Shown here piece by piece: positions 24,852 through 25,552 of a DNA stretch of 64,000 nucleotides. The DNA lies in NCBI RefSeq assembly GCF_055900595.2, contig NZ_CM148325.1; one strand, 5' to 3'. Position 1 is the stretch's first letter. Each line of letters opens with the position of its first letter. The position numbers were made by a program, and so were the translations under genes. Under the pieces are notes generated by a model. That model saw only the letters and a program-made list of their open reading frames with translations. It searched no databases and was not told the origin of the DNA.

Positions 24852-25552
24852 GTATGCTTAGTGTGTTCCCCGCGCTAGCGGGGATAAACCGGTAATAAAT
24901 TCTTTGTGCGCGAAGAAATGAAGGTGTTCCCCGCGCTAGCGGGGATAAACCACGTGGCAACAATATTCCGCTGCTTTAACGCAAGTGTTCCCCGCGCTAG
25001 CGGGGATAAACCGGCGGCGATCATCTTTGACGCCGACCTGTTTCGGTGTTCCCCGCGCTAGCGGGGATAAACCGCGCTACCACAGGTCGCTACCGCATGG
25101 GCTTCAGTGTTCCCCGCGCTAGCGGGGATAAACCGCGGTCATATTGCGCCTGCACAGACTCACTGCGGTGTTCCCCGCGCTAGCGGGGATAAACCGGGGC
25201 AGGGAAATCACGGGCACGGTGACGATATGTGTTCCCCGCGCTAGCGGGGATAAACCGCCAAAACCATGACGTTCTCACTATCGGATGTGGTGTTCCCCGC
25301 GCTAGCGGGGATAAACCGTGGCCACCGGCAAAGAAAAAACGGAGTTCTGGCGTGTTCCCCGCGCCAGCGGGGATAAACCGGAAACTGTACTTGATGCGCT
25401 GAAAGCGATGGGGTGTTCCCCGCGCCAGCGGGGATAAACCGATGGCCCAGGGATTTGTTCAGTCCAGCGTGCCGTGTTCCCCGCGCCAGCGGGGATAAAC
25501 CGCTCTCGGTTCTGGGGTACTGTTACCCATAACTGAGCTCCCCCGCGTCAGC
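24852..25552 (+). CRISPR. Type I-E CRISPR array: 11 full repeats plus one degenerate terminal repeat, 11 spacers
   Basis: 29-nt repeat GTGTTCCCCGCGC[T/C]AGCGGGGATAAACCG at 61-bp period, starting 24852, 24913, 24974, 25035, 25096, 25157, 25218, 25279, 25341, 25402, 25463; degenerate repeat gagctcccccgcgtcagcggggaactc from about 25524. Spacers are 32 nt (one is 33). Confidence 0.95.

Follow-up and report, generated by a model that had tools for sequence, protein, structure and literature searches.

A C/T loop variant divides the repeats of an Escherichia coli CRISPR1 array and probably marks a mutation of the leader-proximal repeat that later spacer acquisitions propagated

The window, as we call the whole stretch of 64,000 nucleotides analysed here (NCBI RefSeq assembly GCF_055900595.2, contig NZ_CM148325.1), carries a type I-E CRISPR array built from two repeat alleles: the eight leader-proximal repeats (R1-R8) have T at repeat position 14, and the three distal ones (R9-R11) have C. 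The most probable history, at roughly 80% in our estimate, is that the leader-proximal repeat mutated and that the change was then propagated by later spacer acquisitions, in situ in this lineage. A sequence-only reading of the same DNA had proposed a mutation in repeat 1 spread by acquisition, and the proposal is supported by a T/C boundary that is fixed across related strains, by the ancestral state of C, by the contiguity of T runs, and by the published demonstration that repeat 1 templates new repeats (Yosef 2012). The phenomenon as such is already known: it has been published for E. coli and Salmonella, its mechanism is experimentally proven, and the window is a further instance. The array illustrates repeat-1 templating cleanly in a natural setting; it reveals no new mechanism and matters little beyond the strain.

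The array belongs to the iap-adjacent CRISPR1 locus of E. coli (CRISPR2.1), an identification fixed by the presence of iap on the trailer side. Downstream of the array lie iap and cysD, and the flanks agree with annotated E. coli chromosomes. The array spans positions 24863-25563 and contains 11 full 29-nt repeats followed by a degenerate terminal one, with a repeat period of 61 nt (62 once) and unique spacers of 32-33 nt. Eleven matches to the repeat pattern were counted in the window, compared with 0 expected from shuffles. Repeats R1 to R11 start at 24863, 24924, 24985, 25046, 25107, 25168, 25229, 25290, 25352, 25413 and 25474. The sequence-only reading had set the array at 24852-25552, which is slightly off; that interval starts about 11 nt too soon and ends, at 25552, within the degenerate terminal repeat. 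Its assignment of the two alleles was confirmed. R1-R8 read GCGCTAGC (the repeat is also given as GTGTTCCCCGCGCTAGCGGGGATAAACCG), with the variant T at 24876, 24937, 24998, 25059, 25120, 25181, 25242 and 25303, and R9-R11 read GCGCCAGC (also given as GTGTTCCCCGCGCCAGCGGGGATAAACCG). The degenerate 12th repeat reads GAGCTCCCCCGCGTCAGCGGGGAACTCCC and is conserved in other E. coli lineages. A search of the repeat against Rfam 15 gave no family at gathering score and only chance-level matches at E<1, and Rfam is apparently without a usable model for this repeat. Upstream of the array is a complete type I-E operon (cas3, cse1, cse2, cas7, cas5, cas6e, cas1, cas2), in which all genes match NCBIfam models and all window copies are full length. 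Coordinates are collected in the table.

Table. Features of the CRISPR1 locus in the window (W1, newest spacer; W11, oldest spacer).
Feature	Position	Strand	Basis
cas3, type I-E helicase/nuclease	16247..18904	+	NCBIfam cas3_core and cas3_HD above cutoff; full-length ORF
Cascade genes cse1-cse2-cas7-cas5-cas6e	18996..23556	+	NCBIfam equivalog match above cutoff for each
cse1	18996..20564	+	
cse2	20561..21097	+	
cas7	21112..22167	+	
cas5	22178..22924	+	
cas6e	22906..23556	+	
cas1e (23553-24476) and cas2e (24473-24766), integrase duplicating repeat 1	23553..24766	+	NCBIfam cas1_ECOLI 382 bits, cas_CT1978 133 bits
AT-rich leader	24767..24862	+	sequence; 90 nt upstream of R1 identical to E. coli R32_14_1F CRISPR1
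T-allele block, R1-R8 (GTGTTCCCCGCGCTAGCGGGGATAAACCG) with spacers W1-W7	24863..25318	+	sequence
Boundary spacer W8, 33 nt; T repeat on leader side, C repeat on distal side	25319..25351	+	all 11 related assemblies share the boundary
C-allele (ancestral) block, R9-R11 (GCGCCAGC) with W9 and W10	25352..25502	+	all-C arrays in lineages sharing W11 or W10
W11 (25503-25534) and terminal repeat (25535-25563, loop GTCA)	25503..25563	+	conserved in many E. coli lineages
iap, trailer-side neighbour	25584..26621	-	NCBIfam PRK10199 704 bits; RefSeq annotation of homologous loci

To place the allele boundary in a wider context, the array was compared with 11 related assemblies, namely eight complete E. 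coli genomes from the RefSeq set and three NCBI assemblies retrieved by exact Cas1 protein look-up. The eight genomes sharing spacers comprise stool isolates (Mali, Gambia, Kenya), a dog isolate (Korea) and strain AST85. In all 12 assemblies, the window included, the T/C switch lies between W8 and W9, whichever internal spacers have been lost. Among the 11 relatives, spacers from W8 upward are always found with T repeats and W9-W11 always with C repeats, so that the expectation that shared distal spacers carry the C-type repeat holds for W9-W11 in 11 of 11. This concordance leaves an error of sequencing or assembly at position 14 with a negligible probability: identical alleles were recovered in 12 independent assemblies, complete genomes included, and the same error would have been needed in eight separate copies. 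We therefore regard sequencing error as ruled out by the 12 concordant assemblies. Other E. coli lineages that share only W11, and one that shares only W10, have C-type repeats throughout, which identifies C as the ancestral state and T as a change that arose in the clade. The boundary at W8|W9 is a stable clade marker and gives CRISPR-based subtyping of this one E. coli clade an internal mark of order.

Around this fixed boundary the arrays of the clade differ mainly by the loss of units. Relative to the window, one array is without W4-W6 (L001), another without W3, W5 and W6 (L002) and a third without W2 (L040), two have an extra spacer X between W6 and W7 (L003 and L004), and one has a different extra spacer, Y, at the same place and is without W1 and W2 (L038); the array of L041 is identical to that of the window. 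The T block of the pan-array consequently consists of W1-W6, {X, Y}, W7 and W8, or ten spacers. Across 5.2 kb, Z0117EC0005 matches the window at 100% identity, and Cas1, Cas2, the leader and the flanks are uniform across the clade. Ongoing acquisition in the clade is not directly seen, because the relatives differ by unit loss alone, perhaps excepting the absence of W1 and W2 from L038. Two relatives have damaged cas genes: in L040, cas6e is split into two ORFs of 108 and 107 aa (2855-3504), and in L041, cas7 is truncated by a 1-nt indel (1061-1801; 246 versus 351 aa). Taken together, these observations suggest that the CRISPR system of this clade is largely static and decaying in places.

The sequence-only reading had located the variable base in the 4-nt loop of the repeat hairpin, and folding of both variants bears this out. 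Position 14 lies within the loop G12 C13 Y14 A15 as the third base of a GCYA tetraloop, the palindromic repeat forms a G+C stem of 6-7 bp, and the minimum free energy is -15.2 kcal/mol for both alleles (z -3.2 to -3.8). In Cse3/Cas6e structures, Cas6e reads chiefly the stem and the stem base, not the loop. Recognition of the T-loop hairpin by Cas6e is probably kept, and the allele is probably neutral for crRNA processing; a search of the available literature for direct mutagenesis of the loop in the context of Cas6e gave nothing useful. The Cas6e protein of the window is identical at 216 of 216 residues to WP_032303663.1 of the all-C strain EC42405, and co-variation of Cas6e with the loop allele was rejected on this basis. 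This identity, together with how common loop alleles are in natural arrays, is indirect evidence that the variant hairpin is still bound and cleaved. As for adaptation, substitutions placed between the inverted repeats lowered it at most 3-fold in the work of Goren et al. (2016, Cell Rep 16:2811), who called these nucleotides 'dispensable'. Because the 4 nt between the inverted-repeat arms are dispensable for adaptation, a loop SNP in repeat 1 can keep propagating, and because repeat 1 also templates new repeats, such a mutation is expected to appear in every later acquisition.

We infer the exact moment and cause of the mutation as follows. The repeats of the ancestral array were of the C type, with the loop GCCA. 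At the time when W8 was the newest spacer, the C at loop position 14 of the leader-proximal repeat would have undergone a transition to T, whether by simple point mutation or through a fill-in error in the leader-proximal copy during W8 integration. W8 itself was integrated on a C-type first repeat, since R9, distal of W8, is still C, and the change must therefore have occurred after W8 integration or in the proximal copy during it. Integration of a new spacer by Cas1-Cas2 involves staggered nicking of repeat 1, followed by copying of both strands, in line with the staggered nicks at repeat 1 and the use of both strands as templates described by Arslan et al. (2014, NAR 42:7884). Each later acquisition (W7 through W1, plus two spacers since deleted here) would then have added a T-type repeat while the older repeats stayed C. 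The change is tolerated, the four loop nucleotides being unneeded for integration and, by inference, for Cas6e hairpin recognition.

This scheme has a direct bearing on how the T repeats are to be counted. Eight T repeats represent one mutated repeat and therefore seven later acquisitions in the window array. For the lineage, the minimum rises to nine, because relatives retain X and Y, T-block spacers that were lost from the window. The earlier count of at least eight acquisitions consequently fails for the window array, while the clade does not contradict it. The practical lesson is that n variant repeats correspond to n-1 acquisitions.

The same boundary could also be read as a recombination junction. 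In that case the array would be a chimera, in which the leader and the T-type block (W1-W8) were imported by homologous recombination with a crossover in the repeat beside W8/W9; the donor array would already have been T-type, and the boundary would not correspond to the moment of mutation in this lineage. Kupczok et al. (2015, PMC4524480) reportedly found a contribution of recombination to the evolution of CRISPR arrays, many lineages share W11 yet differ widely in their upstream spacers, and internal T blocks flanked by C repeats in two other arrays (L011 and L013, described below) are readily explained by exchange. Moreover, no strain was found carrying the pre-mutation array (leader-C-W8-C-W9…), so that in-situ growth is not separable from import of the T block, and there were no intermediate arrays across the W8/W9 boundary among those examined. 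On the other hand, no donor was found, W1-W8, X and Y being confined to the clade among 5,426 E. coli genomes, and the uniformity of Cas1, Cas2, leader and flanks within the clade also speaks against import. In any case, the T run of a donor would itself need repeat-1 templating, which leaves the mechanism of the run unchanged. We consider an imported block unlikely and favor mutation of the leader-proximal repeat followed by acquisition in this lineage.

Concerted evolution, in which T would have spread among neighboring repeats by gene conversion or unequal crossing-over independently of acquisition, has some appeal in that internal units have clearly been lost through repeat-repeat recombination in the clade, so the repeats do interact. 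However, conversion would not be expected to halt at one fixed spacer in 12 assemblies, no spacer duplication of the kind that unequal exchange would yield was seen, most other repeat SNPs remain singletons, and leader-anchored runs would not be expected in most independent cases. Such a spread is therefore a very improbable source of the T block.

We also considered whether the T allele could have been copied from the second array in the same genome. The second array of the clade (CRISPR2, queE-ygcE) lies about 0.85-1.3 kb before window position 1 (L032 2135-2590; Z0117EC0005 CRISPR2), the window beginning inside ygcE. It contains a single T14 repeat, located at the oldest full position, and the count of T repeats had been inflated by CRISPR1 matches; cross-array copying was accordingly rejected. 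The first repeat of this CRISPR2 array is badly mutated (GAGTTCCCCACGTCAGCGGGGATAAACCT) with a stem mismatch, and judging from this repeat, acquisition at the clade CRISPR2 is probably disabled.

The spacers at the two ends of the CRISPR1 array point to mobile elements. W1 (24892-24923), the newest spacer, together with the preceding G has a 33/33 match in SSU5/pLF82-type phage-plasmids (~110 kb) with PAM ATG. The target is a DUF4942/methylase-like gene, found in Escherichia phage Cyrano and in >130 E. coli plasmids. W11, the oldest spacer, is ~90% identical to a Klebsiella phage-plasmid with PAM AAG. W1 and W11 thus represent spacers taken from mobile elements next to a 5' AAG- or ATG-type PAM, and no protospacers for W2-W10 were found in the phage or plasmid collections. 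Base 29 of the repeat comes with the spacer and corresponds to the last G of the PAM. R2 (24924-24952) ends in A instead of G at 24952 (…ATAAACCA), and this terminal A accompanies W2 in relatives and is missing from those without the spacer (L040, L038). Because base 29 derives from the PAM, W2 was probably taken from a non-G PAM. Another irregularity concerns W8, which is 33 nt long instead of 32, a +1 integration; the C→T change falls at the insertion of this spacer or in its aftermath. The two may have met by chance, or the extra nucleotide may hint that integration was imprecise.

The distribution of the allele outside the clade was surveyed by megablast with a 30-nt T-type repeat against 5,426 E. 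coli genomes. T14 repeats were detected in 40 genomes for the GTG-type repeat and in 39 for the GAG-type, with the eight window-clade genomes appearing in both lists, giving about 71 of the 5,426 genomes in total. The independent arrays that were fetched show every expected stage of T propagation: T in R1 only (O39:NM F8704-2), leader-anchored runs (T10, T12 and T6 in E. coli CRISPR2 arrays), internal T blocks (C23-T8-C3 in L011, the R32_14_1F CRISPR1 array; C1-T8-C… in L013, the ECNB21-M121 CRISPR2 array) and internal singletons (L042, L044). In every fetched array with a T run, the run was contiguous and never interleaved with C, which is the opposite of the position-independent mixture that the sequence-only reading had named as evidence against it. 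If T repeats were placed at random, a contiguous block would arise with a probability of 0.024 in the window and 1.5e-6 in the 34-repeat array L011. Variants at other positions and some T14 copies were lone, internal and unpropagated. A scan of one genome per species for T14 repeats beyond E. coli found runs reaching the leader in E. albertii (T8C2) and Klebsiella grimontii (T22C1), TT doublets in several other species, and scattered singletons. Because the very similar T8C2 array of E. albertii and the window array have no spacer in common, a shared origin was rejected, and the E. albertii run is of independent origin.

The internal T blocks of L011 and L013, with C on both sides, imply either that this loop base mutated back or that recombination replaced the leader end. 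The 'timestamp' that had been read from the two alleles therefore stands as a mark of order and not as a clock. Deletion, reversion or recombination can erase ordinal marks of this kind.

The recurrence of the allele raises the question of whether the T loop is selected, for example through an advantage in crRNA processing, Cascade loading or array transcription. Several independent origins of C14→T are indeed seen across E. coli, E. albertii and Klebsiella. However, T14 is rare in E. coli, T gave way to C again in two arrays, Cas6e does not differ from that of the all-C strain, and the loop GTCA is far commoner, which fits a loop under weak constraint. That the T loop is selected thus seems highly unlikely. 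The GTCA loop (T13) was present in 1,495 of the 5,426 genomes (28%), with up to 23 copies per genome, and the idea of position 14 as the sole run-forming loop site was rejected for this reason; the A12 allele occurred in 125 E. coli genomes, always as a single copy. Loop alleles in runs are commonplace in E. coli.

It is also conceivable, though quite doubtful, that loop position 14 is a site of biased, integration-coupled change and not merely neutral. At least six independent C→T changes were counted (two in E. coli CRISPR1, one or two in E. coli CRISPR2, the others in E. albertii and Klebsiella), and two arrays show an apparent reversion from T to C. With T, the loop contains CTAG, a sequence depleted in E. 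coli by very-short-patch (VSP) repair, which corrects T:G to C:G in CTWG-type contexts and tends to turn CTAG back into CCAG. If fill-in errors at the single-stranded repeat intermediate were combined with a VSP-type bias to C, loop alleles would constitute an acquisition-coupled mark, and their frequency would report on integration chemistry, not on time.

The reading we favor, mutation of the leader-proximal repeat and its propagation by acquisition, has close counterparts in known systems. Yosef, Goren & Qimron (2012, NAR 40:5569) used natural GAG/GTG repeat variants as labels and found that the new repeat always carries the label of repeat 1. The logic is the same as for the T and C alleles described here, with a single-nucleotide repeat variant serving as the label. 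Their system was a laboratory two-repeat construct in E. coli BL21-AI with the label at position 2, whereas the window represents a natural experiment with the label at loop position 14. The work of Goren et al. cited above agrees with the window in that the inverted-repeat arms are essential for adaptation and the intervening 4 nt are dispensable; it differs in that multi-nucleotide substitutions on plasmids were studied and the analysis was confined to adaptation. The closest precedent among natural arrays is that of Touchon & Rocha (2010, PLoS One 5:e11126, Table S6), who described "stretches of conserved repeat variants" in the CRISPR1/2 arrays of Escherichia and Salmonella and concluded that a new repeat duplicates the adjacent repeat. 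Their Salmonella Schwarzengrund array includes a single copy of exactly the T14 variant (reverse complement, CGGTTTATCCCCGCTAGCGCGGGGAACAC), three consecutive repeats with the GTCA loop and, at one array end as listed, eight consecutive repeats sharing a position-3 variant. Both there and in the window, contiguous runs of single-nucleotide variants of the same repeat family occur within one array; the window differs in coming from another strain, in having a T14 run that reaches the leader, and in having a boundary that is fixed over 12 assemblies.
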